From: Anaerolineales bacterium
GTDB taxonomy: Bacteria > Chloroflexota > Anaerolineae > Anaerolineales > DRMV01
Assembly (NCBI GenBank): GCA_027023425.1
Contig: JALVVL010000017.1
Location: 12,942-76,941, forward strand
Reading direction: 5' to 3'
DNA length: 64,000 nucleotides
Under the pieces are notes generated by a model that did not search any database, was not told the DNA's origin, and saw nothing but the letters and a program-made list of their open reading frames with translations. The translations under genes were made by a program, and so were the position numbers. Below, piece after piece: positions 20,801 through 38,996 of this stretch (its first letter is position 1; the number at the start of each line of letters is the position of its first letter).

Positions 20801-23800
20801 GCGAATTTTCCCAGCGCAAAACACCAGAAGCATCCAGCCGCTGGACGCTGTGCCATTTTTCTTCAAACACGTCAAGATGCAGGGCGTGGTCGGCGAGCGG
20901 CTCTCCTTGCGGATTGAGCAACACAAAATCTATCCCAAGAGGTTGGTTGACAATACCAAGCCATGAATTGAGTTTCAGGCCGGGGTAAACATTGCTCACG
21001 CGAGAGACTAAAACCGTGTGTCCGTCAGCAGAGTTGCCGCCGCGGTCGGTAACGGTCGCCCAAACCGAAATCTGCTCGTCGCCGTTCTTGAGTTCCTGTG
21101 GGGCGCTCACCGAAAAGGTGAATTTGCCTTGCGCGTCCGTCTTGCCGGTGCCGTTTTGCGATGGGGCGCTGGCGGTGTGTCGCTCGGGCTCCCAATACCA
21201 CAGCCACGGCACGTCCGGCTCGGCGGAGAAAGTGTAGGCGCGGTAGGCGCGCGGCGGCGAGAAATAGAACGGCAGCGTAATCGCTTTCCACGACACATCG
21301 GCATCGGCAACGGCATCTCCGGCGTAGTAGGAAGCCTGCAACGAAACCTCACTTTTCTGTCCCGGCGCCACATCAGCCGGGTTGGGCATCAGCCTAACTT
21401 CAAAAACCGGCTTGTGGTAATTTGCAACGCGGATGAAGCGCGAGCCAAGCCTGGGCACATATTCGCTTTTGGCAGATTTTTGCTCAGGCAACACGTTCAG
21501 GTAATAACCACCCACCGGCGCAGAATCGGAAAGCAAAAAACTGCCATGAAATGTGCCGAGAGACGAAACGGAAACCGTCTGACGGTCTACAACCTTGCCC
21601 GCGTGGCTGAGCGAAACCACCACACGGGTATCGTGTGGAATGGTGTAGTGCAAATCGGCATCTTGACGCAAAATGCCCTTGAAGAAAATTTGCTGGCCCG
21701 GGCGGTACAGGGGGCGGTCGGTGTAGATGAAAGCCACTTTGGAGGAAGGGTTGGCGCCGCGAACATCCCAAAAAGAAATGCTACCGGGCGCTTGGTTGCG
21801 TGTCCAAGCGGCGCTGGCAATGGCAAAATGCTTCGCATCATGCACGAGAGCAAACAAAGGAGCGGACTCCAAGCCGTCAACCAAGGCCACGCCATCACCG
21901 TTGGTAACGGCTGAGCCACTCAACACCACCACCCTGCCTTCATCTTCGGTATCTTTGAGGGTATAAAAATTGACCTTCAGCCCCCCGACCGGCGCGCCAT
22001 CGCTCAGTCCCGTAGCCCAAGCGAGGGCGTTGGCCGGCGAAGCCTTGAAAGTCAAACTTTCGGTGGAAACGGCAATCTGGTAGTAATCAGTAGGCGAGGA
22101 ATACGCTCGCGCTGGCGACTGGGTTACTCCTAAGCAATAAGCCCCCGGCGCCAGCGAGTGACCAACCACTTTCGCAAGGTCAACCGTGAGGTAATGGAAG
22201 CGGCTATCCTTCTTGTCACTTAGGTCAACCCGCATTGAACCAAGCAATTTGGCATTAGGGTTATATTCAGGGTGGCAGACCTCCCAGTCCGCCAAATTGC
22301 TGAGCAAAGCCTGATCATCAAGCGAATACAGAGTGAAGGTGACAGAATCCAAGTTCGCATACCGCAAGTAGAAAATTTGCGGCTGGTCGGCGTGGAAAAT
22401 GCTCAACTGCCCAAGCAACAACGCATCGGCGCTCGGCTCAAGCGGGGCAGTCCTGAAAGTGAAGGTGATCGGAGCATCGGTTTGGTTTCCGTAAACATCG
22501 GCAATGCCGGGCGCAAAGGTCACGGTGTACTCAGTTGCGGGGTCAAAAATTCCTAAATGAACTTCGCGGCCATAAACCTCGTAAGAAATGCCATGCGTAG
22601 GCTCTGGCTGAACGGTTATGTGACCTTCAAGGCTCTTTTCGTCAATGAAAGTGTTAAATTCCACAAAAACCCAGGGCGAATAAACGTCCGAGGCGGTACT
22701 CGGCGTATCTTCAATCCACGGCTTGCCCACAGTGCGGAATTTGCCGTGCACCGGTTTTAGCAGGGCGCTGCCATCAGCCGCGCGGGCATCGGCGTTGACG
22801 CTGACCGTGTAGGTAGTAGCAAGGTCATAAAATTCGTCGGGCTTCAGAGTAAGAATGCTGTGGCTTGAATCCCATTCAGGCGTAAAGTGGGGCACATTTC
22901 CCCCATTAGGGGCCGTCACAACCACCGCCTTGTAGGCATCAGGATTCATTGGAGCGGAGAAGTAAATTTTTATCGGGGCTTTCAACGGGACATAGCGCGC
23001 CAAACCTCTGAGAATATCATCTCCCGAAACGTCAATTATGTTTACCACAACGCTTTCTGTATGAAAGCGCCAAGAAAAACCTTTAGGGAGCACATCCCCT
23101 TCAACCGTGCGCACCCCAGCAGGCAGGGAAACGAGGTAATCCGAGTTGCTCTTGAGGTGATGAGAAGGATGAAAGACGTAAACCGCGCTGCTAACCCAGC
23201 GGCCGCTTCCTTCAACGCTCGGAGTAATGCGAAGGGGCAACGGCGCCGTCGCCTTGTTCTGGGTCAAAGGCACCACCGGCTTGTTGAATACAATTGTGAT
23301 GTCGGCATTCACCGGCACGTTATCGCTGCCGTCAAGCGGGTAAGCCGCATTGACAGCAAAAGCCCGCGCGGTGACGTAGGTGAGGCTAAGGGGAGAAGCC
23401 AGCGAACCACCGTTTTTTGAACGCAAAGCGGTGGTAAATTCCGCGCGGTACTTAGCGCCATTTGGCTTTAGAGGCGTAGCAGGGGTAAAAACAAAAGTCA
23501 AATCATCGCGCCAACTCACCTTGCCCGGCACCGCTTGCCCTTTGGAATCGACAAAACGCCAAGCGGACTGCAGGCTTGCCCTGTCCAACGGCTGGTTGAA
23601 GGTGAAAGCAAGGGTTGGGCGGATGGGCAGAGCCGCAGCAGGCGCGGGTTCCGCGCGCACCAGCGCGAGCCCGCCTGCTTGGGGGGCAATTCGCGTGAAT
23701 GCAGGCATAGCAGTCGCTGTGGCGTGGGCTGCTGTCGGAGAAAGCACGCCGTTAACCGTTTTCCCCAACGATAGAGCGCAAGCAGTTAACGCAAGAGCAA

Positions 23801-23837
23801 AGAAAAAAATGAACAACCCTAAAAAAGACTTTCTCAT
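17823..23837 (-). CDS. alpha-2-macroglobulin family lipoprotein (thioester-less)
   Basis: Signal peptide with lipobox LALTAC, starting from ATG 23837 (gggagg RBS). N-terminal Ig-like modules and long MG-domain-like repeats. A TED-like region follows (LLNYRRSDGTWGWC, alpha/alpha-toroid type). The thioester position reads CIPY (19281-19292) rather than CxEQ. Confidence 0.85.
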   Translation of the reverse strand: MRKSFLGLFIFFFALALTACALSLGKTVNGVLSPTAAHATATAMPAFTRIAPQAGGLALVRAEPAPAAALPIRPTLAFTFNQPLDRASLQSAWRFVDSKGQAVPGKVSWRDDLTFVFTPATPLKPNGAKYRAEFTTALRSKNGGSLASPLSLTYVTARAFAVNAAYPLDGSDNVPVNADITIVFNKPVVPLTQNKATAPLPLRITPSVEGSGRWVSSAVYVFHPSHHLKSNSDYLVSLPAGVRTVEGDVLPKGFSWRFHTESVVVNIIDVSGDDILRGLARYVPLKAPIKIYFSAPMNPDAYKAVVVTAPNGGNVPHFTPEWDSSHSILTLKPDEFYDLATTYTVSVNADARAADGSALLKPVHGKFRTVGKPWIEDTPSTASDVYSPWVFVEFNTFIDEKSLEGHITVQPEPTHGISYEVYGREVHLGIFDPATEYTVTFAPGIADVYGNQTDAPITFTFRTAPLEPSADALLLGQLSIFHADQPQIFYLRYANLDSVTFTLYSLDDQALLSNLADWEVCHPEYNPNAKLLGSMRVDLSDKKDSRFHYLTVDLAKVVGHSLAPGAYCLGVTQSPARAYSSPTDYYQIAVSTESLTFKASPANALAWATGLSDGAPVGGLKVNFYTLKDTEDEGRVVVLSGSAVTNGDGVALVDGLESAPLFALVHDAKHFAIASAAWTRNQAPGSISFWDVRGANPSSKVAFIYTDRPLYRPGQQIFFKGILRQDADLHYTIPHDTRVVVSLSHAGKVVDRQTVSVSSLGTFHGSFLLSDSAPVGGYYLNVLPEQKSAKSEYVPRLGSRFIRVANYHKPVFEVRLMPNPADVAPGQKSEVSLQASYYAGDAVADADVSWKAITLPFYFSPPRAYRAYTFSAEPDVPWLWYWEPERHTASAPSQNGTGKTDAQGKFTFSVSAPQELKNGDEQISVWATVTDRGGNSADGHTVLVSRVSNVYPGLKLNSWLGIVNQPLGIDFVLLNPQGEPLADHALHLDVFEEKWHSVQRLDASGVLRWENSLEVVPVADLGDFTTNADGRGEASFTPDHAGTYRIVATAADDSGRERKAVMRVWVLSADEALMWGESEAKTLPLIPDRASYRPGDVAHIVVTRPFSAPVYALMTEERGKIYSYRLLKIDSPSTTVDLPVKPWMAPVAYVSVVEVSGGDAKRPPDYRLGVLRLPVALEAQRLNVTVTPEKPKAAPGETVKFKVRTTDYAGKPVSAEVSLALVDKALLALAPDNYNLLEKMYSERALRVVTTVSLSQDELSYNLKAMRILPTGSGMGGGGKGADQGGVITVRELFRDTAYWKADLRTNEQGEAEVSITLPDNMTTWVMHARAITADSRVGSAISELKVALPFFVRLHTPAFFTAGDEATLSAVLHNSTDKPLNAEVTLSKAKGLSVKSPLSQKVEVPPKGQAVVSWQVEVPLASRRVDLEVQAVANGYRDASRPVLTLLPDGGIPVFAYKTVETVGLAGVLPKVGAAREYVQPPTGEHYTLRVNLAASLIASVASKLSVKPEEPTECIPYNAFALLKDVAILRMRSSLNLQAAKNDPVKDDALKRLQALLNYRRSDGTWGWCVDDDQSEVMPTAYALDALQAARAAGFPVDSAQITQPAEYLSRVLVRPQQRKYLSLDDQVYIVDVLARSGRPVSAFVYELAKKMKNSPPDRVNTADWAMLLRAAENAKMGADFTKPIVARLENSVTVSASAAHWDKGEAAWWSRWSSPLTATALAVDALLKADPRAPFLQNAVRWLAGRYNSSPRLSDLSDSTILRTLSDWAAFSHEGVANYDYAVFLGGKPATSGHMAQADLLTPKVLTWDEKRVPAGKLTTLDIQRGKGDGVLYYTAYLELTLPADEARAHYAGFSVDRAYYLVSDLDNPVTSAKVGDLVQVRLTVVVPHSEDNVVLTDYLPAGLEPLSGKRPEYLPDEEDYSLDKFRCCGWGGWFFGHREVYYDHVLFHAMHLPAGTYTVVYYARAATPGTFKARPAVVWDSFFPDVRGNTDGAAFTVLGR

Positions 23838-23946
23838 CTTGGCCTCCCAGAGACATTGCAAAGTGAACAAACGTCACTTTGCCACAAAGCGTAAATAAAC
23901 ACAAAGATATCGCTAACGATATTGTACTCCAAATTCCAACCTGCAG

Positions 23947-26310: not shown

Positions 26311-26919
26311 TCACTCTCCCACTTCCCACACAACCGCATTCCTCGGCAGGCGCGGCGGCGGCACTGGGCTTTCGGCAGGATAGCCGATGAAAAGCATCCC
26401 CTGAGGCTCCCACGAAGCGGGCAAAGCAAGGGCGGCGCGCGTTTCGGCTTGCGCGTACAACGGCCAGCACACCCACACACTGCCCAAGCCCTCGGCATGG
26501 GCGGCAAGCATCAACTGCAATGCGAAGGCGGCGACTGACTGAACGGCCATCGTATGCTCAGGCGGAGCGTCGCGGCGTACAACATCCACATCGCGGTTTA
26601 GCAAAAGCGCCACCGGGGCTTCGTCCATGCGGCGGATTGAGCGGGCGACGCGCGCCTCAATCGCCTCCTTGTCCGCTCCCTCAGCCGCCATATCGCGGCG
26701 CATCCGCTCCGTGAGGGCAAAGGCAAGTTTGCGCTTGACCTCGGGCTTGCGCAGGAGCACAATCCGCCACGGCTGGAGGTTGTGCGCCGACGGAGCGTAA
26801 ATGCCGGTATCCAAAATCCGCTCCAGCACCTCATCGGGCACAGGCCGCGGCTGAAACTCGCGCACACTACGCCGCGAGCGCAAAAATTCGTGAAGAGCCT
26901 GCGAGGGTAATTTCGTCAT
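26311..26919 (-). CDS. nitroreductase-family FMN protein (FbiB C-terminal-domain-like)
   Basis: 202 aa with N-terminal RRSVREF and APSAHNLQPW motifs. gggagg RBS. It lies in a cluster with cofE and an F420-dependent reductase. Confidence 0.7.
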   Translation of the reverse strand: MTKLPSQALHEFLRSRRSVREFQPRPVPDEVLERILDTGIYAPSAHNLQPWRIVLLRKPEVKRKLAFALTERMRRDMAAEGADKEAIEARVARSIRRMDEAPVALLLNRDVDVVRRDAPPEHTMAVQSVAAFALQLMLAAHAEGLGSVWVCWPLYAQAETRAALALPASWEPQGMLFIGYPAESPVPPPRLPRNAVVWEVGE

Positions 26920-26934
26920 TCGGCAATCCTCCCG

Positions 26935-27654
26935 CTAAGCCTCAGCATCCGGCGGGTAAACCTCAAAGAGCAAAGATTCATCTTTCGGCCCGCGGTAAAC
27001 GCAAAGCCCAACGCGGGGAGAGTTGACAAACGGCAAAAAGGCGTTGGGCTTTTCCCAAGCCGGATGTTGGCGGGCATGTTCATCGCAATACGCCTCTTGA
27101 GGCCATGCGTCGGTGTAGAGCCATTCCGCAGGTTTGCCGCAGACGCGACAAGGCTTGAAAGGCTTGTAATTGCGCGCCAACAGCCTCACCCCGCCAGCCG
27201 GCACATCCCCCGAATATGCCGCAAGCGGCGTGACGCGCAAGACACTCGGCCAAACCTCATCGTAGGAATATTGCACCGTTTCGCCAACCGTGAGCACATC
27301 CTCAAGCGGCACATCCATCGGTTGGACATGGGCGTATTCGTCCAACACCAATTCCACGGGGGAAGGGTTGGGACGGCGGCCGTAAACCGCTTCGCCTATC
27401 GTGAACTGGCTATAATGCCCACAGCAGTCCACCCAAATGTGGCGGAGGTACTCGTCCAAATCTGCCAAGGTCGCCGAGCGGGGAATTTCCAGCGCCAGCC
27501 AGTAGATTTCGGGGAAGTAGTCGTCCTCAACGAAGATTAGAAACAGCGGCTCATCGCCCTGCTCACGCCCGCGACAGCCGAGCAGATGGGCTTTCATTTC
27601 ATCTTTGGAGAGGGAAGCGCCGCAAACGAAGCATTTGCCCGTTGTTGCTTGCAT
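26935..27654 (-). CDS. hypothetical protein, pRiA4b ORF-3-like fold with terminal Cys/His clusters
   Basis: The pattern LFLIFVEDDYFPEIYWLALEIPRSATLADLDEYLRHIW...GH.SQF...YG ... VQYSYDEVW resembles the PF07929-type family (from memory). It also carries CFVCG...C and CRVCG...CDEH. Confidence 0.4.
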   Translation of the reverse strand: MQATTGKCFVCGASLSKDEMKAHLLGCRGREQGDEPLFLIFVEDDYFPEIYWLALEIPRSATLADLDEYLRHIWVDCCGHYSQFTIGEAVYGRRPNPSPVELVLDEYAHVQPMDVPLEDVLTVGETVQYSYDEVWPSVLRVTPLAAYSGDVPAGGVRLLARNYKPFKPCRVCGKPAEWLYTDAWPQEAYCDEHARQHPAWEKPNAFLPFVNSPRVGLCVYRGPKDESLLFEVYPPDAEA

Positions 27655-27675
27655 AGTTCACCTCAGAGAGCGCGT

Positions 27676-28449
27676 TCAGCGGAAAAGGTCTTTTTCCCGC
27701 GGGCGGATGAGTTCGCGGAACGACGATTCACGAAGCGGATAAGGAAAACCGCGCACATGCACTGCGGGAATCGCTTCATCCGCCTGCCCCATCACCAGCG
27801 AAGCGGCGGCGGCGAGTTCGTCTGCCGCGCCAATTTGGGTGATGCGGAGTTCACGCCCGAGCAAGTCATACCTGCCGCGCAGGTCAACCAGCGCAGGCAC
27901 GCCGCTGACGCCAATGGCAACGCCCATTGTGCCCAAGCGCCAAGCCCGACCATGCGAATCATTGATTATCACACCAAGCCGCCTACCAGTGGCGGCTTCT
28001 AACCGAGAACGCAGGCGCGCCGCCGATTCATCGGGGTTTTCGGGCAAAAGGAGCACGCAGTCCTCGCTGCCGCAGGCGTTGGAATGATCAATACCCGCGT
28101 TGGCGCAGACAAAGCCGCGCTTGTGCTCCACAATCAACACGCCGGGCACGGCGCGGAGCACCTCTGCACTTTCGCGCAAAATCAATTCCACCAAGCGCGG
28201 GTCTTTTTGGGTAAGCGCCGCCAACTCCCGCGCTTTGGGTGAAGGGGAGACGGCGTTCAAATCCACCATGCGGCCTTCGGCGCGCGAGACAATTTTCTGC
28301 GCCACCACGACCACATCGCCGTCGCGCCACAAAACGCCGGAGCGCTCCGCGGCTCCCAAAATCAGCGCCGCGAGGTCATCTCCCCTTTCCACCAAGGGAA
28401 TGCCAAGGAGCGGCGTGAGCACAAGCGGTTGGGGATGCCGCGCCGTCAC
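27676..28449 (-). CDS. cofE: coenzyme F420-0:L-glutamate ligase CofE
   Basis: Motifs GIPLVERGDDLAALI, VVVAQKIVSRAEGR and FVCANAGIDHSN. Its GTG start overlaps the upstream stop (GTGA). Confidence 0.85.
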   Translation of the reverse strand: MTARHPQPLVLTPLLGIPLVERGDDLAALILGAAERSGVLWRDGDVVVVAQKIVSRAEGRMVDLNAVSPSPKARELAALTQKDPRLVELILRESAEVLRAVPGVLIVEHKRGFVCANAGIDHSNACGSEDCVLLLPENPDESAARLRSRLEAATGRRLGVIINDSHGRAWRLGTMGVAIGVSGVPALVDLRGRYDLLGRELRITQIGAADELAAAASLVMGQADEAIPAVHVRGFPYPLRESSFRELIRPREKDLFR

Positions 28450-29114
28450 GATTGCCCCAATCCGACTATACGAACCCCCGCGGATTTTGCGCCGTAGGCT
28501 TTGTTGATGTAAATCAAGAGGCTGGTCAAGCCCTCCACAACGGGGGTATTTTCAATTGGGCCGGCGTCAATTGGGCGAAATCCTGCGGCTTCAACCAATT
28601 CCATCACGCGGCGGCGGTTTGCCTTGCCCCTGCCCGCCACCAAAACATCGTGGTCGGAAGGTTCGCCTTCCCAAAGCACGCCGTGGGCGATGTTTTGGAA
28701 CGCGTCCACCACCGCTACATCGTCGCCGAGGATTTGCTGTGCTTCAAGGGCGGCGCTTCCGGCTTCAGGCAGCCAAACTTTGGTAACTTTGGGGGGCTTT
28801 AGCGGCACGGTAACGTCCACCAAAATTTTGCCGTGGAGGGCATCGCGGACGGCTTCCAGCGTGGTGCGATGGGCGGCGTAAGGCACGGTGAGGATTACGA
28901 TTTCGCCGCGGAGCGCGGCTTCGTAGTTTTCAGCGCCGAAAACGGGGGCGTCGGGGTTGCCCAAGCGGGTGCGGATGGCATCCGCAGCGGAGCGAGCGCG
29001 TTCAAGGCTCCGAGAGCCGATGTAAATTGTGTAGCCCGCCTTTGCCCAACGGTAAGCCAGCCCGCCACCCTCGCGCCCAGTCCCCCCGAGGATTGCCAAA
29101 ACCGGTTTGGTCAT
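28446..29114 (-). CDS. npdG: NADPH-dependent F420 reductase (NpdG/Fno family)
   Basis: Rossmann motif LAILGGTGREGGGLA, a 222-aa size typical of the family, and a ggagg RBS. Confidence 0.8.
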   Translation of the reverse strand: MTKPVLAILGGTGREGGGLAYRWAKAGYTIYIGSRSLERARSAADAIRTRLGNPDAPVFGAENYEAALRGEIVILTVPYAAHRTTLEAVRDALHGKILVDVTVPLKPPKVTKVWLPEAGSAALEAQQILGDDVAVVDAFQNIAHGVLWEGEPSDHDVLVAGRGKANRRRVMELVEAAGFRPIDAGPIENTPVVEGLTSLLIYINKAYGAKSAGVRIVGLGQS

Positions 29115-30536: not shown

Positions 30537-33464
30537 CTACCGCACCGCCACCAGCACCGCCCGCACCATCCGGCGGAAGGGATAGTCTCCCGTGGCCGGG
30601 TCGTAGCCCTCACAAGTCACTAAGGTCAGAACATCATACTTTTCATGCTTCAACAGCATGTGGTGCGCCGCCCAACTTCGCGCCGATAAGCGCTTGTTCT
30701 CCCGCACTTCGTACACATACACCCGACCCCAGGCGTGGATTTCAATCCGGTCGCCATAGCGCAGGTCTTTGAGGTGCAGGAACGGCCCCGGGGTATTGTC
30801 CGCGTTCCACACATGCGCCGTCAGCACCGTGTTCCCGGCCCAAGTGGGGAAGGCCGTACCTTCCAACCAGCCCACTGCATTACCCAACCACGACACATCC
30901 CAGCCATTTTCCGTCAGGGGCACGCCCACGATGGGCAGGCCAAGCCCCAAGGATGGAATCGTCAGCCGCATGTCCATCCCAGCATAGGCTTTAGTGGCCG
31001 GCTGCTGCGGCAAAGTCGTGACCACCCCGCGCGGGAAACCGGTTTTAGGCGGCGCGGGATGTTGCACCACAAAATCATAGATGCTGTCATGGCCGCCGTT
31101 GAGGTGGTTGCCTACAAGATCAGTGATGGACGTAGTGCCGCACACGAAGAGGCGATAGGTGCCGTCAGGCAGGGGCACACCGTTGTTGATATGCGCCGTG
31201 GCCGTGAAGGTGGCGCTGTCGTAGGTCACGCTGTTCACGGTGATTCGGGTATCGTCGGCCTGCACACCGCCTGCGCAGGAGACGGTATCAAAAGCATCGT
31301 TCTTCCCCCGTTCCACCAGCAGGTAGTTGGCCGGATTGGTCACATCGTTGGGGCCGGTGTTGCCCGGCGGGTCATTCACGGCCTCGCTGAAATGCACTTG
31401 GAACGAAGTGAAACCTTGGGTGTAAGCAGAAGTTACAGGGGGACTGACAACTGTGGGCCCAGCCGCATCGTAAGTAACCGTATTGTCGGTGCTGGTGCTG
31501 GCATTGTTGGGGTTGCCGTCCCAATCAGCCACGCGGTTGGCCGCAATGGAAGCCGTCACGGTGCCCGCACCGCTCATACCGCTGACGGCGATATCAAAAG
31601 TCGTATGGTCATAAGGGCTAATCTCGGTAACAGTCGCCGAAAGTGTACCCGAGACTGTACCGCCCAAAGTAACATCAGAGGCATCAAAGGTTGCCGGATC
31701 CACAAAGGGAGTAAATACCGCTGTGAAATGGATGGGGCCTACGTTGGTCGGGTCGGGTTGAGTGGCGGCCTGATTCACGGTCACAGTAAGGGGTGCACGA
31801 CGCACTTCATAAGCCCCAATGTCGCAATGGCTGCCCTGGGGGCGGGCCACGCCGCGCTGGTCGGTGGACGGGCATTCATTGTCCGCCCCGGCGTCTATGG
31901 CGGGAGAGCCAGATTTGAGCGGAAAGACTTGCCGTCCAGGGCCTCCAAAGTCGGTGAGCGCACCTAATTGAGGGTCTTTGCCAATGATGTTGCCGTTGAC
32001 ACCGTCAGTTAAGCCGCAAGCGTGGGCACTGTCCTCAATCAGATTATGGCTTGAAGTATCAGCAATAGCGCTATTAGGGCCGAAGTTGACACAATCTCCA
32101 CCAGAACCGCTGTTGGCGATAATAACATTGATGAGCACTGGCTTGCTTTGGCCGGAGTTGTACATCCCATCACCATCACCACCGTGGGCCGAATTGTTAG
32201 AGAAGGTGACGTTTGTCAATACAGGGCTGCTGTCAAAATTTTCGATACCCCCACCATAATCATAGGCTGAATTACCAAAAAACGTGACGTTCGTCAGTCT
32301 GGGGTTGCTCTTGTAGTTGGAGAGCCCGCCTCCGCTGCCGAATAGTAAGAAATCAGTAAAGAAGCCAACCGCCGCATTGTGCATGAAGGTTACGTTCGTT
32401 AAAACAGGGCTACCCTCAACGCTAAGCATCCCACCACCAAAAGCGGCAGAATTCCCGGAGAAGGTCACATCTGTCAGTGTAAGGCTGCCGCCGTAATTGG
32501 AAATCCCGCCCCCATCACCATCGCCATAAACCGAATTTCCGGAGAAAGTCACATTTTTTAGGGTAAGGTTACTGCCGCCACTGGCTATTCCGCCGCCGTC
32601 ATAGAGGGCGTCATTATTGGAAAAGATAACATTTGTCAATTGAGGGCTTCCCCCACCGATGATCATCCCGCCGCCCGCCTCCTCGGCCTCGTTGCGGGAA
32701 AAGGTAACTTCCGTCAAAATAGGACTGCCCTCCTCTTCATACATCCCGCCGCCATCAAGGTAGGCGTGGTTATCAGAGAAAGTCACATGCGTAAGTTTAT
32801 GGCTACTGTAAACGCTGAAGATTCCGGCGCCATCGTAGGCCAAATTGCCAGAGAAGGTGACGTTCCGCAGCGTAAGGCTGCTGTGCTCGCTGTGTAGCCC
32901 GCCGCCCTCGCGTTTGGGGGAATAAAAATCTTCATCATTAGCCTGTCCCGCGGTGATAGTGAAGCCGTCCAGCACGGCGCCGTTGTTCACATGGATAGCG
33001 GTAAGGACATGATAAGCGTTGTTCCCAGCGAGGTCCAGAATGCTGGTGACCACACCGTGGGCATCGGTGGTGTCATTTTGGTCAATGTCCCCGCTGAGGA
33101 CAGTGATGTTGTGCTCTGGGTCGCGCTGGTCGCGGGCGGTTTCCGTGCCCGCGAAGCCGCCGTAAAGCGCCACCCCGTTCTTGAGCCGGAAGGTGCTGTT
33201 GCGGTCATCATTCGTCTGCCCGGCGCCTTCGTCCGGGTAGTACACGCCGGCTGCCACCCAAATTTCGGTGCAGCCGGCGTCGGCCAGCGCGTCCTGCAAG
33301 GTGGTGTAGGCATCGGCCCAACTGGTACCGTTGTTGGCACCGGTAGCGTCGGCCTTCACATAACAAATCGGCCCGGCCGCGCGCACCGCCGGTGCGGGCA
33401 ACAGGGCCAAGATGACGCTCAACACGAGCGCCGCACGGATCAGGCGTTGGAAAAAGGTTTGCAT
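30537..33464 (-). CDS. secreted parallel-beta-helix (Pmp/PbH1-like) protein with Ig-like modules and a C-terminal sortase domain, paralogue 1
   Basis: Signal peptide from MQTFFQRLIRAALVLSVILALLPAPAVRAAG. About 10 units of the L(T/K)NVTFSGNSA..GGG type, then DQRGVARPQGSHCDIGAYE. C-terminal His (VLTAH), Cys (TLVTC, 30612-30614) and Arg (PFRRMV), with sortase-like spacing of 67 and 13 aa. PPKTGF lies at 31035-31052. Confidence 0.8.
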   Translation of the reverse strand: MQTFFQRLIRAALVLSVILALLPAPAVRAAGPICYVKADATGANNGTSWADAYTTLQDALADAGCTEIWVAAGVYYPDEGAGQTNDDRNSTFRLKNGVALYGGFAGTETARDQRDPEHNITVLSGDIDQNDTTDAHGVVTSILDLAGNNAYHVLTAIHVNNGAVLDGFTITAGQANDEDFYSPKREGGGLHSEHSSLTLRNVTFSGNLAYDGAGIFSVYSSHKLTHVTFSDNHAYLDGGGMYEEEGSPILTEVTFSRNEAEEAGGGMIIGGGSPQLTNVIFSNNDALYDGGGIASGGSNLTLKNVTFSGNSVYGDGDGGGISNYGGSLTLTDVTFSGNSAAFGGGMLSVEGSPVLTNVTFMHNAAVGFFTDFLLFGSGGGLSNYKSNPRLTNVTFFGNSAYDYGGGIENFDSSPVLTNVTFSNNSAHGGDGDGMYNSGQSKPVLINVIIANSGSGGDCVNFGPNSAIADTSSHNLIEDSAHACGLTDGVNGNIIGKDPQLGALTDFGGPGRQVFPLKSGSPAIDAGADNECPSTDQRGVARPQGSHCDIGAYEVRRAPLTVTVNQAATQPDPTNVGPIHFTAVFTPFVDPATFDASDVTLGGTVSGTLSATVTEISPYDHTTFDIAVSGMSGAGTVTASIAANRVADWDGNPNNASTSTDNTVTYDAAGPTVVSPPVTSAYTQGFTSFQVHFSEAVNDPPGNTGPNDVTNPANYLLVERGKNDAFDTVSCAGGVQADDTRITVNSVTYDSATFTATAHINNGVPLPDGTYRLFVCGTTSITDLVGNHLNGGHDSIYDFVVQHPAPPKTGFPRGVVTTLPQQPATKAYAGMDMRLTIPSLGLGLPIVGVPLTENGWDVSWLGNAVGWLEGTAFPTWAGNTVLTAHVWNADNTPGPFLHLKDLRYGDRIEIHAWGRVYVYEVRENKRLSARSWAAHHMLLKHEKYDVLTLVTCEGYDPATGDYPFRRMVRAVLVAVR

Positions 33465-33524
33465 AGCAGCCCCCGATAAGGCATCCTGCTTCCCCCGCGG
33501 GTGCTTCGGCAAAGCCTCAGCACC

Positions 33525-33561
33525 GCGCCCCGCTCTCTCCCCTTGGGAGAGAGCGGGGCGC
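33525..33561. repeat. perfect GC-rich hairpin related to the family-D core
   Basis: gcgccccgctctctcccc / ttgg / gagagagcggggcgc. It lies between the two paralogues, 120 nt downstream of paralogue 2, in the 5' region of paralogue 1. No U-tract follows it. Confidence 0.6.
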
Positions 33562-33683
33562 AGCCGCCGAGCATGAGCGATGCGGCGGGGGATAAGTAAA
33601 GGTGTTCAGACATAACAGCGCTACTTTCATCGTCAACCGATTTTTTCTTCTTCAAACAGTGTTCTCAACGGCGGGCCAAGGGA

Positions 33684-36587
33684 CTACCGCACCGCCACCA
33701 GCACCGCCCGCACCATCCGGCGGAAGGGGTAGTCTCCCGTGGCCGGGTCGTAGCCCTCGCAGGTCACTAAGGTCAGAACATCATACTTTTCATGCTTCAA
33801 CAGCATGTGGTGCGCCGCCCAACTTCGTGCCGGTAAGCGCTTGTTCTCCCGCACTTCGTACACATACACCCGGCCCCAGGCGTGGATTTCAATCCGGTCG
33901 CCATAGTGCAGGTCTTTGAGGTGCAGGAACGGCCCCGGGGTATTGTCCGCGTTCCACACATGCGCCGTCAGCACCGTGTTCCCGGCCCAAGTGGGGAAGG
34001 CCGTACCTTCCAACCAGCCCACTGCATTACCCAACCACGACACATCCCAGCCATTTTCCGTCAGGGGCACGCCCACGATGGGCAGGCCAAGCCCCAAGGA
34101 TGGAATCGTCAGCCGCATGTCCATCCCAGCATAGGCTTTAGTGGCCGGCTGCTGCGGCAAAGTCGTGACCACCCCGCGCGGGAAACCGGTTTTAGGCGGC
34201 GCGGGATGTTGCACCACAAAGTCATAGATGCTGTCATGGCCGCCGTTGAGGTGGTTGCCCACAAGATCAGTGATGGACGTAGTGCCGCACACGAAGAGGC
34301 GATAGGTGCCGTCAGGCAGGGGCACACCGTTGTTGATGTGCACCGTGGCCGTGAAAGTGGCGCTGTCGTAGGTCACGCTGTTCACGGGGATTCGGGTGTC
34401 GTCGGCCTGCACACCGCCTGCGCAGGAGACGGTATCAAAAGCATCGTTCTTCCCCCGTTCCACCAGCAGGTAGTTGGCCGGGTTGGTCACATCGTTGGGA
34501 TCGGTGTTACCGGGCGGGTCATTCACGGCCTCGCTGAAATGCACTTGGAACGAAGTGAAACCTTGGGTGTAAGCAGAAGTTACAGGGGGACTGACAACTG
34601 TAGGCCCAGCAGCATCGTAAGTAACCGTATTGTCGGTGCTGGTGCTGGCATTGTTGGGGTTGCCGTCCCAATCAGCCACGCGGTTGGCCGCAATGGAAGC
34701 CGTCACGGTGCCCGCACCGCTCATACCGCTGATGGCGATATCAAAAGTCGTATGGTCATAAGGGCTAATCTCGGTAACAGTCGCCGAAAGTGTACCCGAG
34801 ACTGTACCGCCCAAAGTAACATCAGAGGCTTCAAAGGTTGCCGGATCCACAAAGGGGGTAAATACCGCTGTGAAATGGATGGGGCCTACGTTGGTCGGGT
34901 CGGGTTGAGTGGCGGCCTGATTCACGGTCACAGTAAGGGGTGCACGACGCACTTCATAAGCCCCAATGTCGCAATGGCTGCCCTGGGGGCGGGCCACGCC
35001 GCGCTGGTCGGTGGACGGGCATTCATTGTCCGCCCCGGCGTCTATGGCGGGAGAGCCAGATTTGAGGGGAAAGACTTGCCGTCCAGGGCCTCCAAAGTCG
35101 GTGAGCGCACCTAATTGAGGGTCTTTGCCAATGATGTTGCCGTTGACACCGTCAGTCAGACCGCAGGCATGGGCACTGTCTTCAATCAAGTTGTGGCCTG
35201 AATTCGTGGAGATCGTGGCATTAGAGTCATTGGCGCAATCCCCGCCGGAAGGACTGTTCGCGATGATAACGTTGGTCAGTACGGGAGTGCTGTTGCCCCC
35301 ATTGAAGATCCCACCGCCGTTATTAGCTGAATTATCAGAGAATGTCACGTTAGTTAATACAGGACTGCTGTCGTAATTACCACTATAGGTGTAGAATCCA
35401 CCGCCATTACCATACGCCGAATTGCCAGAAAAGGTGACGTTCTTCAATATAGGACTTCTGTGATAACTATAGTTGTAAATTCCTCCTCCATCTTCGTAAA
35501 GAGCCGAATTGTCAGAAAAAGTGACATTTATGAGAAATAGCCCGCCATCATTGTTAAACAAGCCACCACCCCCATAATACGCCGAGTTATTCGTGAAAAT
35601 AACCTCCCTCAATGTGGGGTTACCCCAAAAGTTGTACATCCCCCCGCCATCAGTGATCTCAGCCGAATTGCCGGAGAAAGAAACGCCTATCAGTATAGGA
35701 TTGCCAGAGTCATTATACATCCCACCCCCTTCATAAGCCAAATTATCTGAGAAGGTCACATTCGTCAGCTTAAGACTACTTTCAATACTATACACCCCAC
35801 CACCAGCGCCGTTATGAGCAGAGTTGCTCCCAAAAGTAACGTCTACCAGCGTAGGATTACCACCCCAAATGTACATTCCCCCACCGCTGCGGTTAGCTGA
35901 ATTATTAGAGAAAGTAATGTGTGTTAACGTGGGAGTGCCATTATTATTGTATATCCCACCCCCATCATAAGCCAAGTTGCCGGCAAAGGTAACATCCCGC
36001 AGTGTAGGGTCGCTGCGATTGTTGTACATCCCGCCACCCACGCTATTGGGATAATTTCCATTGGCCTGTCCGGCGGTAATAATGACACCGTCTAGGATAG
36101 TGCCGCTGTATGCCCCGCTGCCGGTGACCACATGGTAAGCGTTACCCCCACTGATGTTGTTGGTGTCAACGACCACACCGTGGGCATCGGTGGTGTCATT
36201 TTGGTCAATGTCCCCGCTGAGGACGGTGATGTTGTGCTCTGGGTCGCGCTGGTCGCGGGCGGTTTCCGTGCCCGCAAAGCCACCGTAAAGTGCCACGCCG
36301 TTCTTGAGCCGGAAGGTGCTGTTGCGGTCGTCGTTCGTCTGCCCTGCGCCTTCATCCGGGTAGTACACGCCGGCTGCCACCCAGATTTCGGTGCAGCCGG
36401 CGTCGGCCAGTGCGTCCTGCAAGGTGGTGTAGGCGTCGGCCCAACTGGTGCCGTTGTTGGCACCGGTAGCGTCGACCTTCACGTAACAAATTGGCCCGGC
36501 CGCGCGCGCCGCGGGCGCGGGCAACAGGGCTAAGATGACGCTCAACACGAGCGCCGCACGGATCAGGCGTTGGAAGAAAGTGTTCAT
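33684..36587 (-). CDS. secreted parallel-beta-helix protein with C-terminal sortase domain, paralogue 2
   Basis: Same architecture as 30537-33464, starting at MNTFFQRLIRAALVL (ATG 36587). The last ~495 aa differ from paralogue 1 at only 7 positions. PPKTGF lies at 34182-34199 and the TLVTC Cys codon at 33759-33761. Confidence 0.8.
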   Translation of the reverse strand: MNTFFQRLIRAALVLSVILALLPAPAARAAGPICYVKVDATGANNGTSWADAYTTLQDALADAGCTEIWVAAGVYYPDEGAGQTNDDRNSTFRLKNGVALYGGFAGTETARDQRDPEHNITVLSGDIDQNDTTDAHGVVVDTNNISGGNAYHVVTGSGAYSGTILDGVIITAGQANGNYPNSVGGGMYNNRSDPTLRDVTFAGNLAYDGGGIYNNNGTPTLTHITFSNNSANRSGGGMYIWGGNPTLVDVTFGSNSAHNGAGGGVYSIESSLKLTNVTFSDNLAYEGGGMYNDSGNPILIGVSFSGNSAEITDGGGMYNFWGNPTLREVIFTNNSAYYGGGGLFNNDGGLFLINVTFSDNSALYEDGGGIYNYSYHRSPILKNVTFSGNSAYGNGGGFYTYSGNYDSSPVLTNVTFSDNSANNGGGIFNGGNSTPVLTNVIIANSPSGGDCANDSNATISTNSGHNLIEDSAHACGLTDGVNGNIIGKDPQLGALTDFGGPGRQVFPLKSGSPAIDAGADNECPSTDQRGVARPQGSHCDIGAYEVRRAPLTVTVNQAATQPDPTNVGPIHFTAVFTPFVDPATFEASDVTLGGTVSGTLSATVTEISPYDHTTFDIAISGMSGAGTVTASIAANRVADWDGNPNNASTSTDNTVTYDAAGPTVVSPPVTSAYTQGFTSFQVHFSEAVNDPPGNTDPNDVTNPANYLLVERGKNDAFDTVSCAGGVQADDTRIPVNSVTYDSATFTATVHINNGVPLPDGTYRLFVCGTTSITDLVGNHLNGGHDSIYDFVVQHPAPPKTGFPRGVVTTLPQQPATKAYAGMDMRLTIPSLGLGLPIVGVPLTENGWDVSWLGNAVGWLEGTAFPTWAGNTVLTAHVWNADNTPGPFLHLKDLHYGDRIEIHAWGRVYVYEVRENKRLPARSWAAHHMLLKHEKYDVLTLVTCEGYDPATGDYPFRRMVRAVLVAVR

Positions 36588-36681
36588 GGCTGCCCCCAGC
36601 GGAATCCTCCGAAAGTGTTCTTTGAGACGGGCTATGTAAAAATTATACCGCAAAAACGGCGCCCCATTGCGACTTTCAGAA

Positions 36682-36722: not shown

Positions 36723-37649
36723 ATGCCCCAGAGTGCGCCTCCCTCTAAAGAACCATTGGCTCCATACCTTCCTGCCATCACCCAGAGGGTATTCTCACCC
36801 GTGTCACCGCCGTTGAAGTGGGCTGGGGGGAAAGCGGCTTTGCTCCCGCAAATGCGAAAGCACTTTCCCGAAGTTTTTGGGCGTTACCATGAGCCGTTTC
36901 TTGGAGGCGGGGCAGTATTTTTTTATTTATCCCCGCAACGCGGCGCTAAGGCTTTTCTCTCTGACCTCAACGAAGAACTCATCAATTTTTACCTTGTGCT
37001 TCGTGAGCAGGTGGATGATTTACTCAAGGAAGTGCGGGCATTGCACGAAACTTACCTCCGGCTTGGCGAAACAGAACGCGAGAAATTGTATTATGAATGG
37101 CGCAACGCCGACCGCACTCCGGAATTCAAAAAATGGTCTCCCTTGCGGCGGGCAGTTAGGTTTTATTTCCTCAACAAAACCGCCTTCAACGGTCTTTATC
37201 GTATCAACCGACAAGGCTTGTTCAATGTACCGTGGGGTGGATACAAACGCCCCGCGCTTTACCGCCCACAATTGTTGCGCGATGCCGCGGCTGTTTTGCG
37301 AAAGTTTGCCGTTTTTCTAAAAGCCACATCGTTTGAAATTGTGTTGGACAACGCCCAAAGCGGCGATTTTGTCTATTTTGACCCTCCCTATGCGCCTGTA
37401 TCAGCGACGGCATCCTTCACCACCTACACTTCAGGCGGTTTTGGAGAGGCAGAACAACGGCATCTGGCGAGCGTATGCCACGAGTTAGACCGCCGCGGCG
37501 TCATGTTTTTGCTTTCCAACAGCGATTTGCCGTGGGTGCGAGCGCTCTACACGGGCTTTGCTGTATTCACCGTGCAGGCTCGCCGCAATATCAACAGCAA
37601 AGGCGACAAACGGGGCCCGGTCAATGAAATTCTCGTGCGCAATTACTGA
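36723..37649 (+). CDS. Dam-family (alpha-class, D12) N6-adenine DNA methyltransferase
   Basis: N-terminal LKWAGGKAALLPQM, motif I EPFLGGGAVFF, and catalytic DPPY (37380-37391). Confidence 0.85.
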   Translation: MPQSAPPSKEPLAPYLPAITQRVFSPVSPPLKWAGGKAALLPQMRKHFPEVFGRYHEPFLGGGAVFFYLSPQRGAKAFLSDLNEELINFYLVLREQVDDLLKEVRALHETYLRLGETEREKLYYEWRNADRTPEFKKWSPLRRAVRFYFLNKTAFNGLYRINRQGLFNVPWGGYKRPALYRPQLLRDAAAVLRKFAVFLKATSFEIVLDNAQSGDFVYFDPPYAPVSATASFTTYTSGGFGEAEQRHLASVCHELDRRGVMFLLSNSDLPWVRALYTGFAVFTVQARRNINSKGDKRGPVNEILVRNY

Positions 37650-37664
37650 AACAGGAGCATCGCA

Positions 37665-38996
37665 ATGACCCAACGCGACAAAGCATGGGAAGCCATTTTT
37701 GAGGGGGAGCACATTCCACAAACGCTGGAGAAGCAAGGCTGGGCAACGATCACGACAGAGGTCATCCGCAAAAAGTATCACAAAGAACCACGGCTTTTAG
37801 CAAAAACCGATGCCTATGAGGCGCTTCCCGAAGTGTTCCGCAAAAACGACGCGGCGCTGCTTTCGCTGACTAATGAAGAGTATGCCATCCTCCGCTTAGG
37901 GAACAAAGGCAAACCTCTTTTTCCGAAACTGCCGCCTGTGATTGGCAGGCCGACGCATATACTCATTGAAGATTGCGCTCGGCGTATCGTGACCCTGCCG
38001 TGGGAGGAACATTTCACCAGCGAGTCTCAAGCCATTGATGCCGCACTGGCGGCACACATTTTACAGAATTTTGTGGGCGACGAAAGACTTGTGCTCACTA
38101 TACGGGGGCGAAGGTGGTTTCAGAAATCCTTGCCTCTGCGTTTCTCACTCAAAGGCAGGGTGACCGAGTTTCCTTTGAAAGCGCGCGGTTTCCAAATAGA
38201 GGTGGACGGGGGCTATGAGTCTCCCCGCCATGTGTACCTTCTGGAAGCCAAAAACAAAGCCCACAAAACTTTCAACTTGCGACAGGTAATGTTTCCCTAC
38301 CTATTTTGGAAAGATTATCTACGCGGGCGAAATACCACTAAAACCGTCCGTCCCATTTACATGGTTTACACCGCGCACAATTATTTCCTCTACGAATTCA
38401 CCGTAGAAAAAGAAGATGTGCTCAACTCGCTTCATGTTGTGCGCGCAGGATGGTATGTGCTTGGTGCACCGCCGCTAACCTTAGCCTACATTAGAGAAAT
38501 AGTGCAAACTCACACACCGGCAGATGTTCGGAATGTTCCGTTTCCTCAGGCCGACTCGTTCCTGCGGCTGTATGATATTTTGGAGGAAGTCAAACGCAAA
38601 GGTGCGCTCACTGCAAACGAGATTGCCGAACACCAAGAGTTTACCCTGCGTCAGGGCAACTATTATGCCTCGGCAGCGCGATGGCTTGGCTGGCTGGGAA
38701 AACGGGGAAACGCTTTCGTAATCAGCAAGGATGGCAAGAGGCTTTTGGCCTCTGCCCTCAACGAAAGGCCAAGGCTGATTTTGCAACGGCTGGCACAGCG
38801 CCCGGTTTTCCACGAGGCGCTGCAGTGGTGGGCAACCACTGCCAAATTGCCCACAAAGGGGCAAATTGAACAATGGATTGTTCAAGCCATTGAGAGCAAA
38901 CAGATCAAAGCGCTATCCCAAAGCACCATTCCGCGTCGGGCGAGCACCGTCGCCGGATGGCTCCAAATCCTTGCCGCATGGGTGCGAACACCATGA
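37665..38996 (+). CDS. putative restriction endonuclease (PD-(D/E)xK core) with C-terminal helix-rich, wHTH-like region
   Basis: Motif FQIEVD(181)GGY...12 aa...LLE(194)AK(196) at 38205-38252. It starts 16 nt after the methylase stop with an acaggagc RBS. I recognise no family, so the call rests on the motif plus its position next to the methylase. Confidence 0.5.
   Translation: MTQRDKAWEAIFEGEHIPQTLEKQGWATITTEVIRKKYHKEPRLLAKTDAYEALPEVFRKNDAALLSLTNEEYAILRLGNKGKPLFPKLPPVIGRPTHILIEDCARRIVTLPWEEHFTSESQAIDAALAAHILQNFVGDERLVLTIRGRRWFQKSLPLRFSLKGRVTEFPLKARGFQIEVDGGYESPRHVYLLEAKNKAHKTFNLRQVMFPYLFWKDYLRGRNTTKTVRPIYMVYTAHNYFLYEFTVEKEDVLNSLHVVRAGWYVLGAPPLTLAYIREIVQTHTPADVRNVPFPQADSFLRLYDILEEVKRKGALTANEIAEHQEFTLRQGNYYASAARWLGWLGKRGNAFVISKDGKRLLASALNERPRLILQRLAQRPVFHEALQWWATTAKLPTKGQIEQWIVQAIESKQIKALSQSTIPRRASTVAGWLQILAAWVRTP

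Follow-up and report, generated by a model that had tools for sequence, protein, structure and literature searches.

Current views of sortases rest on an enzyme that is anchored in the membrane and works in trans, its substrates being kept there by their sorting signal. Here we analyze two tandem genes of an uncultured Anaerolineales bacterium (GTDB lineage Bacteria; Chloroflexota; Anaerolineae; Anaerolineales; DRMV01) that unite substrate and enzyme in a single chain. The window, meaning the whole stretch of DNA analyzed, comprises 64,000 nucleotides of contig JALVVL010000017.1 in assembly GCA_027023425.1 (positions 12,942 to 76,941 of the forward strand), and all coordinates given below for these genes and their surroundings are counted from its first letter. 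In both proteins a sorting motif is directly followed by a complete, membrane-free sortase, and hence self-cleavage followed by covalent self-attachment is the probable fate of each protein. We consider it rather probable, on balance, that the C-terminal ~171 residues serve as a self-contained sorting cassette, used only once, which cleaves its own LPXT/G sequence and passes the passenger to an amine of the cell envelope.

With classical sorting of the Staphylococcus aureus SrtA type, the cassette has in common the fold, the His-Cys-Arg triad, the Cys-Arg spacing of 13 residues, the LPxTG consensus and the secreted, adhesin-like passengers. It differs in carrying enzyme and substrate in one chain, in lacking both the helix and basic tail of the substrate and the membrane anchor of the enzyme, in holding its motif at a constant ~24 residues ahead of the domain and, probably, in turning over only once. 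The best match by profile and fold is to class C sortases, such as SrtC-1 (2W1J) and SrtC1 of group B Streptococcus (GBS; 3RBK), which also share an N-terminal extension into the active-site region. This extension forms a lid (D58-P59-W60 in SrtC-1, residues 44-55 in GBS SrtC1) that fills the active-site groove (PMC3166054). A lid mutant of GBS SrtC1 (3RBJ), engineered from KDPYS to IPNTG, was designed to mimic bound substrate (PMC3166054), and the sorting motif at the lid position that it created by design would be natural in the cassette family. The natural class C lid, on the other hand, is DP[W/F/Y] and no substrate, and class C enzymes have a membrane anchor and pilin genes as neighbours, whereas the cassette segment is LPxTGF and is carried at the C-terminal end of a large passenger. 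Engineered self-cleaving fusion tags (BISOP, PMC2901362) likewise combine a sortase and an LPXTG site in one self-cleaving chain, but they are laboratory constructs of SrtA with the motif C-terminal to the enzyme and serve hydrolysis and release instead of anchoring, whereas the cassette motif lies N-terminal to the enzyme, joined to it by a conserved, structured linker. The full-text literature searched contained no description of substrate-sortase fusions or of Anaerolineae sortases, although most subscription journals lay outside its scope and a prior description is possible. Within that literature, the enzyme family and its chemistry are known, whereas a single-chain, membrane-free form with the motif at the lid position is undescribed.

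A sortase domain preceded by its own sorting motif

The C-terminal domain of the two proteins is a genuine sortase by profile, by its AlphaFold2 (AF2) model and by its match to solved sortases. The Pfam Sortase profile (PF04203, peptidase family C60) is matched over its entire length (1-125 of 125) with 65.6 bits in the first open reading frame (ORF) and 64.0 bits in the second, against a cut-off of 26.6, and places the catalytic domain at 30540..30965 in gene 1 (minus strand, residues 834-975) and, from this profile, at 33687..34112 in gene 2 (minus strand, residues 826-967). The AF2 model, built from an alignment of 121 cassettes, reached a mean predicted local distance difference test (pLDDT) score of 92.6 and a predicted template modelling (pTM) score of 0.88; it has the eight-stranded beta-barrel fold of sortases, matched solved sortases in Foldseek with a probability of 1.0, and VIA-align superposed it best on 3tbe_C (Z 17.7, root-mean-square deviation 2.5 Å over 141 residues), with 135 chains at Z of at least 8. 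An earlier note on this DNA, made from its letters alone, had proposed a sortase catalytic domain in place of the sorting signal's helix and basic tail, and its codons for the first gene proved exact: the minus-strand triad comprises His884 (30813-30815), Cys951 (30612-30614) and Arg964 (30573-30575) in gene 1, and His876 (33960-33962), Cys943 (33759-33761) and Arg956 (33720-33722) in gene 2, with spacings of 67 residues from His to Cys and 13 from Cys to Arg. These positions are also conserved in homologues, for which that note had asked. Among 242 of them, pooled from two database searches, His884 is present in 242 of 242, Cys951 in 241 of 241 and Arg964 in 99%, and every carrier read in the genus census described below retains both motif and triad (P 117/117, T 126/126, G 123/123, H 99/99, C 144/144, R 144/144).

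Assignment to a sortase class is less direct, for all NCBIfam class models score far below their cut-offs: class F gives the best value (42 against 166), class C (NF033745) gives 40.8 and 39.4 bits for the two proteins against 160, and classes E, D and GN give 30.6 against 160, 27.8 against 165 and 19.5 against 158, respectively. No class A model appears among the NCBIfam matches reported for either protein. Profile comparison and fold both rank the class C pilus sortases first.

Both proteins carry the hexapeptide PPKTGF, a sorting-type motif ~24 residues ahead of the Pfam Sortase domain. It lies at 31035..31052 in gene 1 (minus strand, residues 805-810, with the predicted scissile bond between T808 and G809), where it corresponds to the family consensus LPxTGF, and at 34182..34199 in gene 2 (minus strand, residues 797-802). 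The earlier note is thus mistaken in seeing no LPXTG substrate in the window, the motif having been overlooked probably because both genes carry a rare PPKTG variant. In the aligned column of the 242 homologues the motif reads L in 88%, P in 99%, a free third position (A 40, S 13, D 10 and others), T in 98%, and G and F in 100%, and in 219 of 241 proteins it stands 167-172 residues from the C-terminus (typically ~168). The same pairing holds within the source genome, where all seven fused sortase domains are preceded by [LP]Px[TS]GF (LPKTGF, LPQTGF, LPNSGF or PPKTGF) at 167-176 residues from the C-terminus, and where only one other hexapeptide of this pattern was found in the six-frame ORFs of at least 200 residues (11,692 ORFs of at least 80 residues in total). 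The cassette motif is the LPXTG sorting consensus, complete with the free third position that characterizes it, and each copy is matched by one sortase domain.

What follows the motif sets it apart from a classical signal. No transmembrane (TM) window and no basic tail follow it, and a linker of 23 residues (minus strand, 30966..31034 in gene 1, residues 811-833; 34113-34181 in gene 2) leads directly into the sortase domain. The membrane anchor of the enzyme is missing as well, since no TM window occurs in the last 330 residues of 236 of the 242 homologues. With the motif conserved directly upstream, the enzyme takes the place of the helix and tail alone while the motif of the sorting signal is retained, which reinforces what the earlier note had claimed. 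The linker residues G813, T816, L818, Q821, P822 and Y827 are conserved at 88-98%, and in the AF2 model, where the motif occupies residues 15-20, pLDDT by block is 85 for the block holding the motif and 95 for the next one (linker), the values across the linker being 95 and 87. Motif and linker are accordingly predicted to be ordered against the sortase domain. The constant spacing of the motif and the conserved, confidently modelled linker fit a defined intramolecular arrangement. The positions flanking the motif co-vary most strongly with the beta6/beta7 loop, at ~4 standard deviations by mutual information (effective number of sequences 164; the signal is confounded by relatedness), and this co-variation gives weak support to the proposed self-sorting.

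A portable cassette of the Anaerolineae and its hairpin-type relatives

The source genome (2.2 Mb in 45 contigs, 94% complete) encodes eight sortase domains, of which seven are fusions and one is a stand-alone enzyme. All seven fusions are C-terminal on large secreted proteins, and their passengers are mutually unrelated: beta-helix with choice-of-anchor Q, DUF11/CARDB, a lamin-tail domain (LTD), PT repeats, and SdrD_B/GEVED/SpaA/DUF11 giants whose open frames run to 3,329 and 3,509 residues. Motif and sortase thus form a portable C-terminal cassette, resembling a sorting signal in this respect. The only stand-alone sortase (L024, G000:C33:21918-22832) has an N-terminal membrane helix and matches the class E model best, with 103 bits and hence under the cut-off of 160. 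The only classical candidate substrate found (L025, G000:C38:19880-20590, minus strand) combines LAKTG with a helix and an RRLRRTT tail; its N-terminus resembles a signal anchor more than a cleaved signal peptide. No other LPXTG-bearing candidate substrate was found among the six-frame ORFs of the genome. With a stand-alone enzyme that is class E-like and a classical candidate that carries LAKTG, the LPxTG motifs of this genome belong to the cassette proteins themselves.

The spread of this passenger-sortase architecture, which the earlier note had proposed to survey, turns out to be wide in number and narrow in lineage. An exhaustive search of 1.84 billion representative proteins yielded at least 1,294 clusters (50% identity) at E values of up to 1e-30, and in the 150 best hits the match always lies at the very C-terminal end of the protein, whose length ranges from 205 to 3,523 residues. 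In a census over 36,145 genera, ~165 carried the cassette at 80 bits or more, ~159 of them in the class Anaerolineae (728 genera drawn), which amounts to about a fifth of the Anaerolineae genera sampled; strays outside this class were confined to fewer than three genera in each of two other phyla. By this count the cassette is almost confined to the Anaerolineae. All 22 sampled genomes of the source family carry it, usually in multiple copies, and the named records are nearly all metagenome-assembled genomes (MAGs) of Anaerolineales, Anaerolineae or Chloroflexota, in which the homologues are called just 'sortase' or 'LPXTG-site transpeptidase family protein'. No conserved neighbour or partner gene was detected around 79 related loci, where antisense shadow ORFs alone recur, and the lack of a conserved neighbour argues that the cassette is self-contained.

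A second type of fusion occurs in the same order, the Anaerolineales, and consists of a passenger, an LPxTG motif, a TM helix, a short basic loop, another TM helix, a long linker and a sortase. Examples are the proteins of loci L106 (2709-9962, minus strand, 2,418 residues, IPVTGF), L105 (6751-13440, minus strand, 2,230 residues, IPNTG) and L107 (675-3761, plus strand, 1,029 residues, LPGTG). In the family of the last one (120 homologues, P0245-P0364), two TM windows lie within the last 330 residues of 115 proteins, and LPxTG stands at most 25 residues before the first TM window in at least 91, mostly as LPGTG (59) or LPPTG (22). A search with this hairpin family returned at least 220 proteins, again mostly with LPGTG or LPPTG, and with DUF11-type passengers. 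Topologically, the hairpin fusion is, by its predicted helices, a complete classical sorting signal joined end-to-end with a classical anchored sortase. Lineage and the combination of passenger, LPxTG and C-terminal sortase in one chain are common to both types, which differ in that the hairpin form has two membrane helices with a basic cytoplasmic loop, a long variable linker and a sortase from other clades. Taken together, the two types show that LPXTG substrates and their sortases are fused repeatedly in the Anaerolineales lineage. As a side observation, the region of L105 in a related genome (G033:C134:9000-28500) holds eight sortase-domain genes within 19 kb, namely six membrane-anchored stand-alone forms (330-843 residues), the 2,230-residue hairpin fusion and one further match; the longest stand-alone form, of 843 residues, has a long PT-rich linker.

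Proposed self-attachment and its alternatives

The predicted structure offers a rationale for how motif and enzyme might meet. Structural alignments of the cassette model to the lid-bearing class C sortases open at model residues 8-12 (2w1j_A at chain residue 54, 3rbk_A at chain residue 44), ahead of the motif, whereas those to class A and E enzymes open at model residues 35-39. From the model we infer that the LPxTGF segment occupies the lid position of class C enzymes. Complex predictions that paired the motif segment (model residues 1-37) with the sortase core (residues 38-185) scored 0.73, 0.00 and 0.00 in three runs and weigh neither for nor against binding. We likewise infer that the motif docks in cis, that it is cleaved and what accepts the passenger, and the process might run as follows. 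After Sec export and folding, the motif would sit in the substrate cleft of its own sortase, where class C enzymes hold their lid. Cys951, helped by His884 and Arg964, would then attack the bond between Thr808 and Gly809, so that a thioester would join the passenger to a detached sortase domain with the new N-terminus Gly-Phe. The acyl group would pass to an envelope amine, most likely that of a peptidoglycan stem peptide or of another wall or sheath polymer, and the spent enzyme of ~167 residues would be set free.

Several points weigh against self-attachment through a lid-like motif. In the IPNTG lid mutant the inserted motif was found disordered and not docked (PMC3166054), and the lid placement proposed here is read solely from the first aligned residues, that is, from the ends of the aligned ranges. 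The two window genes themselves carry PPKTG, with Pro for Leu, a variant present in only three of the 242 homologues, both genes included, and a two-residue insertion in the beta6/beta7 loop is unique to these three proteins. This is the substrate-recognition loop of SrtA. The substitution and the insertion represent one evolutionary event, which could be a matched change or else a loss of cleavability. A secreted protein without a membrane tether, moreover, must reach its acceptor before diffusing away. The comparison with the hairpin type is also of limited help, for in a quick tree with long branches the cassette domains form one clade (SH-aLRT 90, with a long stem), whereas the hairpin domains fall into other clades, intermixed with stand-alone enzymes. 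The two types look like parallel inventions, as judged from this tree, and not like a proven series.

An acyl-enzyme formed as proposed could instead find its acceptor in a lysine or the N-terminus of another copy or of another surface protein, thereby building pilus- or sheath-like polymers. The nearest solved relatives by profile and fold are indeed the class C sortases of pilus assembly, and the passengers of the genome hold SpaA-type, SdrD_B and DUF11 modules that are typical of pilins and adhesins. Yet these passengers are highly diverse and lack a common recognizable pilin motif, no pilin-type gene cluster surrounds the two genes, and the class C model of NCBIfam is matched with only 40.8 bits against its cut-off of 160, all of which makes polymer assembly seem unlikely, if worth keeping in view. 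The alignment of the motif region with the start of the class C lid can also be turned against cleavage, since class C lids are not cut: LPxTGF might act as a pseudo-substrate that only regulates the active site, with the passenger positioning a sortase that works in trans. Class C lids, however, are DP[WFY], whereas the segment seen here is a true substrate consensus with a free x; seven enzymes would be left on seven unrelated passengers without targets, given that the genome offers no other LPXTG candidate substrates; and the hairpin relatives join a complete sorting signal to their enzyme. We regard a purely regulatory lid as quite improbable.

Cleavage in cis need not end in attachment either. 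If water resolved the intermediate, the passenger would be shed with a free C-terminal threonine, an outcome that would agree with the absence of a membrane tether and with the self-cleavage of engineered sortase-LPXTG fusions (PMC2901362). A whole transpeptidase domain would be a costly device for a single cut, however, the passengers consist of adhesin-like, surface-type modules, and hydrolysis by sortases is slow compared with aminolysis, as is generally known, so that autoproteolytic release appears slightly less probable still. Lastly, the motif might be cut by the stand-alone, TM-anchored sortase on contig C33, leaving the C-terminal domain for retention, folding or some other role. The presence of one such enzyme in the genome speaks for this housekeeping processing, but this enzyme resembles class E, LAKTG is the motif of its single classical candidate substrate, the triad of the fused domain is intact and invariant, and no membrane helix would hold the substrate at the membrane; such processing seems very improbable indeed.

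Self-attachment to an envelope amine hence remains the reading that we favour, and it would have implications beyond the two genes. The balance is even, in our estimate, on the broader proposition that the cassette defines a third kind of sortase-dependent signal, a membrane-independent and essentially single-use 'autosortase' that uses LPXTG as its own active-site lid and attaches the passenger away from the membrane, in parallel with the hairpin fusions. If true, this would follow a logic different from that of known sorting, with one enzyme per cargo, no membrane step and the possibility of attachment far from the membrane. It would bear on how filamentous Chloroflexota construct their envelopes and sheaths, which are poorly understood, and would account for many giant MAG proteins annotated merely as 'sortase'. 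Provided that the mechanism is as we propose, the cassette would also offer protein engineering a compact, naturally optimized self-ligating tag of ~170 residues.

Passenger architecture and genomic surroundings

The two genes are tandem minus-strand ORFs at 30537..33512 and 33684..36653, and their likely start codons are the ATGs at 33464 and 36587. Gene 1 thereby extends over 30537..33464 (975 residues and a TAG stop) and gene 2, a tandem paralogue of the same architecture, over 33684..36587 (967 residues and a TAG stop), both on the minus strand, with products identical to the database proteins P0003 and P0004, respectively. The order along gene 1 is signal peptide, beta-helix, choice-of-anchor Q domain, two Ig-like modules, PPKTGF motif, linker and sortase domain. 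This layout had been outlined in the earlier note, and both profiles and AF2 folds confirm it. The two genes encode what are predicted to be Sec-secreted, adhesin-like surface proteins. The Sec signal peptide (minus strand, 33378..33464 in gene 1, residues 1-29, ending in VRA/A; 36501-36587 in gene 2) is the sole hydrophobic window above 1.6 in each protein, its AxA-type cleavage site having been read by eye from the sequence and not by a signal-peptide predictor. No hydrophobic segment follows it, as the earlier note had also claimed, for the highest Kyte-Doolittle score of any 19-residue window beyond the first 40 residues is 1.38.

The PMP-type parallel beta-helix (minus strand, 32139..32870 in gene 1, residues 199-442; 35277-36002 in gene 2) is supported by Beta_helix PF13229, which matches the first ORF only (52.6 bits), by Chlam_PMP PF02415 in both ORFs (36.1 and 56.7 bits) and by the POMP repeat model TIGR01376 of NCBIfam (42.5 bits). 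Regular-expression matching recovered 8-9 units per protein with a period mostly of 25-27 residues and up to 35, instead of the ~23 residues of the earlier note; in gene 1 there are eight units, 25-35 residues apart, with one double gap of 54. PMP repeats are shared with the chlamydial Pmp autotransporters, but the C-terminal autotransporter beta-barrel of the latter has no counterpart here, as the Pfam and NCBIfam profile searches reported no autotransporter domain in either protein and the C-terminus is the sortase domain. The choice-of-anchor Q domain (NF041518; minus strand, 31803..31976 in gene 1, residues 497-554; 34950-35123 in gene 2) is matched with 84.1 and 83.3 bits against a cut-off of 25, over positions 1-57 of a profile of 58. 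Choice-of-anchor domains owe their name to their occurrence with different C-terminal anchoring signals, and what distinguishes the present proteins from these NCBIfam families, notwithstanding a Q domain at 84 bits, is that the anchor is an enzyme-containing cassette and not a short peptide.

Two Ig-like beta-sandwich modules (minus strand, 31053..31802 in gene 1, residues 555-667 and 668-804; 34200-34949 in gene 2) complete the passenger, with an AF2 pLDDT of 94.8 and VIA-align Z scores of 8-9 to the S-layer protein SbsC, the adhesins FdeC and SiiE, and PcoC/CopC. By BLAST of the Ig-like region, the second module is also found upstream of the cassette in most homologues, in a stalk-like position. 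Each mature protein contains nine cysteines, eight of which form four close pairs (34/65, 458/483, 531/547 and 730/775 in gene 1). Going by their positions these pairs could be disulfides, with the catalytic cysteine as the only unpaired one. Antisense to the Ig-like modules and to the beginning of the cassette, both genes have ORFs of 410 residues (30735-31967 and 33882-35114, plus strand), and similar ones recur at 31 of the 79 related loci; they are probably stop-poor shadow frames and not genes.

The identity between the two genes is mosaic, with 87-94% over the 450 nucleotides at the 5' end, 49-73% in the beta-helix and 95-100% over the 1,450 nucleotides at the 3' end, the cassettes differing at five synonymous and two non-synonymous sites. 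Such a pattern suggests, from the alignment, a diversification of the binding region with homogenized ends, or gene conversion of the ends. Logan contigs from four vent metagenomes contain both unique beta-helix halves, and in run X1 the shared 3' half has a depth ~2x that of its flanks, which is compatible with two copies, though depth is not copy number. Apparent 'variants' in the shared part were discarded as population data, being mostly the paralogue's own bases. DNA nearly identical to 30537-33464 is present in runs from four studies, none of them listed as RNA, and those labelled by organism are hydrothermal vent metagenomes; a hydrothermal vent is thus the likely habitat.

The neighbours of the two genes in the window include a ROK kinase, F420 genes and a Dam methylase, and no pilin genes. 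The Dam-type N6-adenine methyltransferase lies beside gene 2 and is immediately followed by a 443-residue protein with DUF6996, DUF6997 and DUF7226 (36723-38996, plus strand), the two of which may constitute a restriction or defence pair. On the other side, an F420-related run (26311-29114, minus strand) comprises a nitroreductase, a 239-residue ORF, an F420-0:gamma-glutamyl ligase and an F420-dependent NADP oxidoreductase. Further along (17823-23870, minus strand) the window encodes a bacterial alpha-2-macroglobulin of 2,015 residues (A2M, bait region, MG2, bMG6 and bMG10) with four N-terminal Big_5 Ig-like domains.

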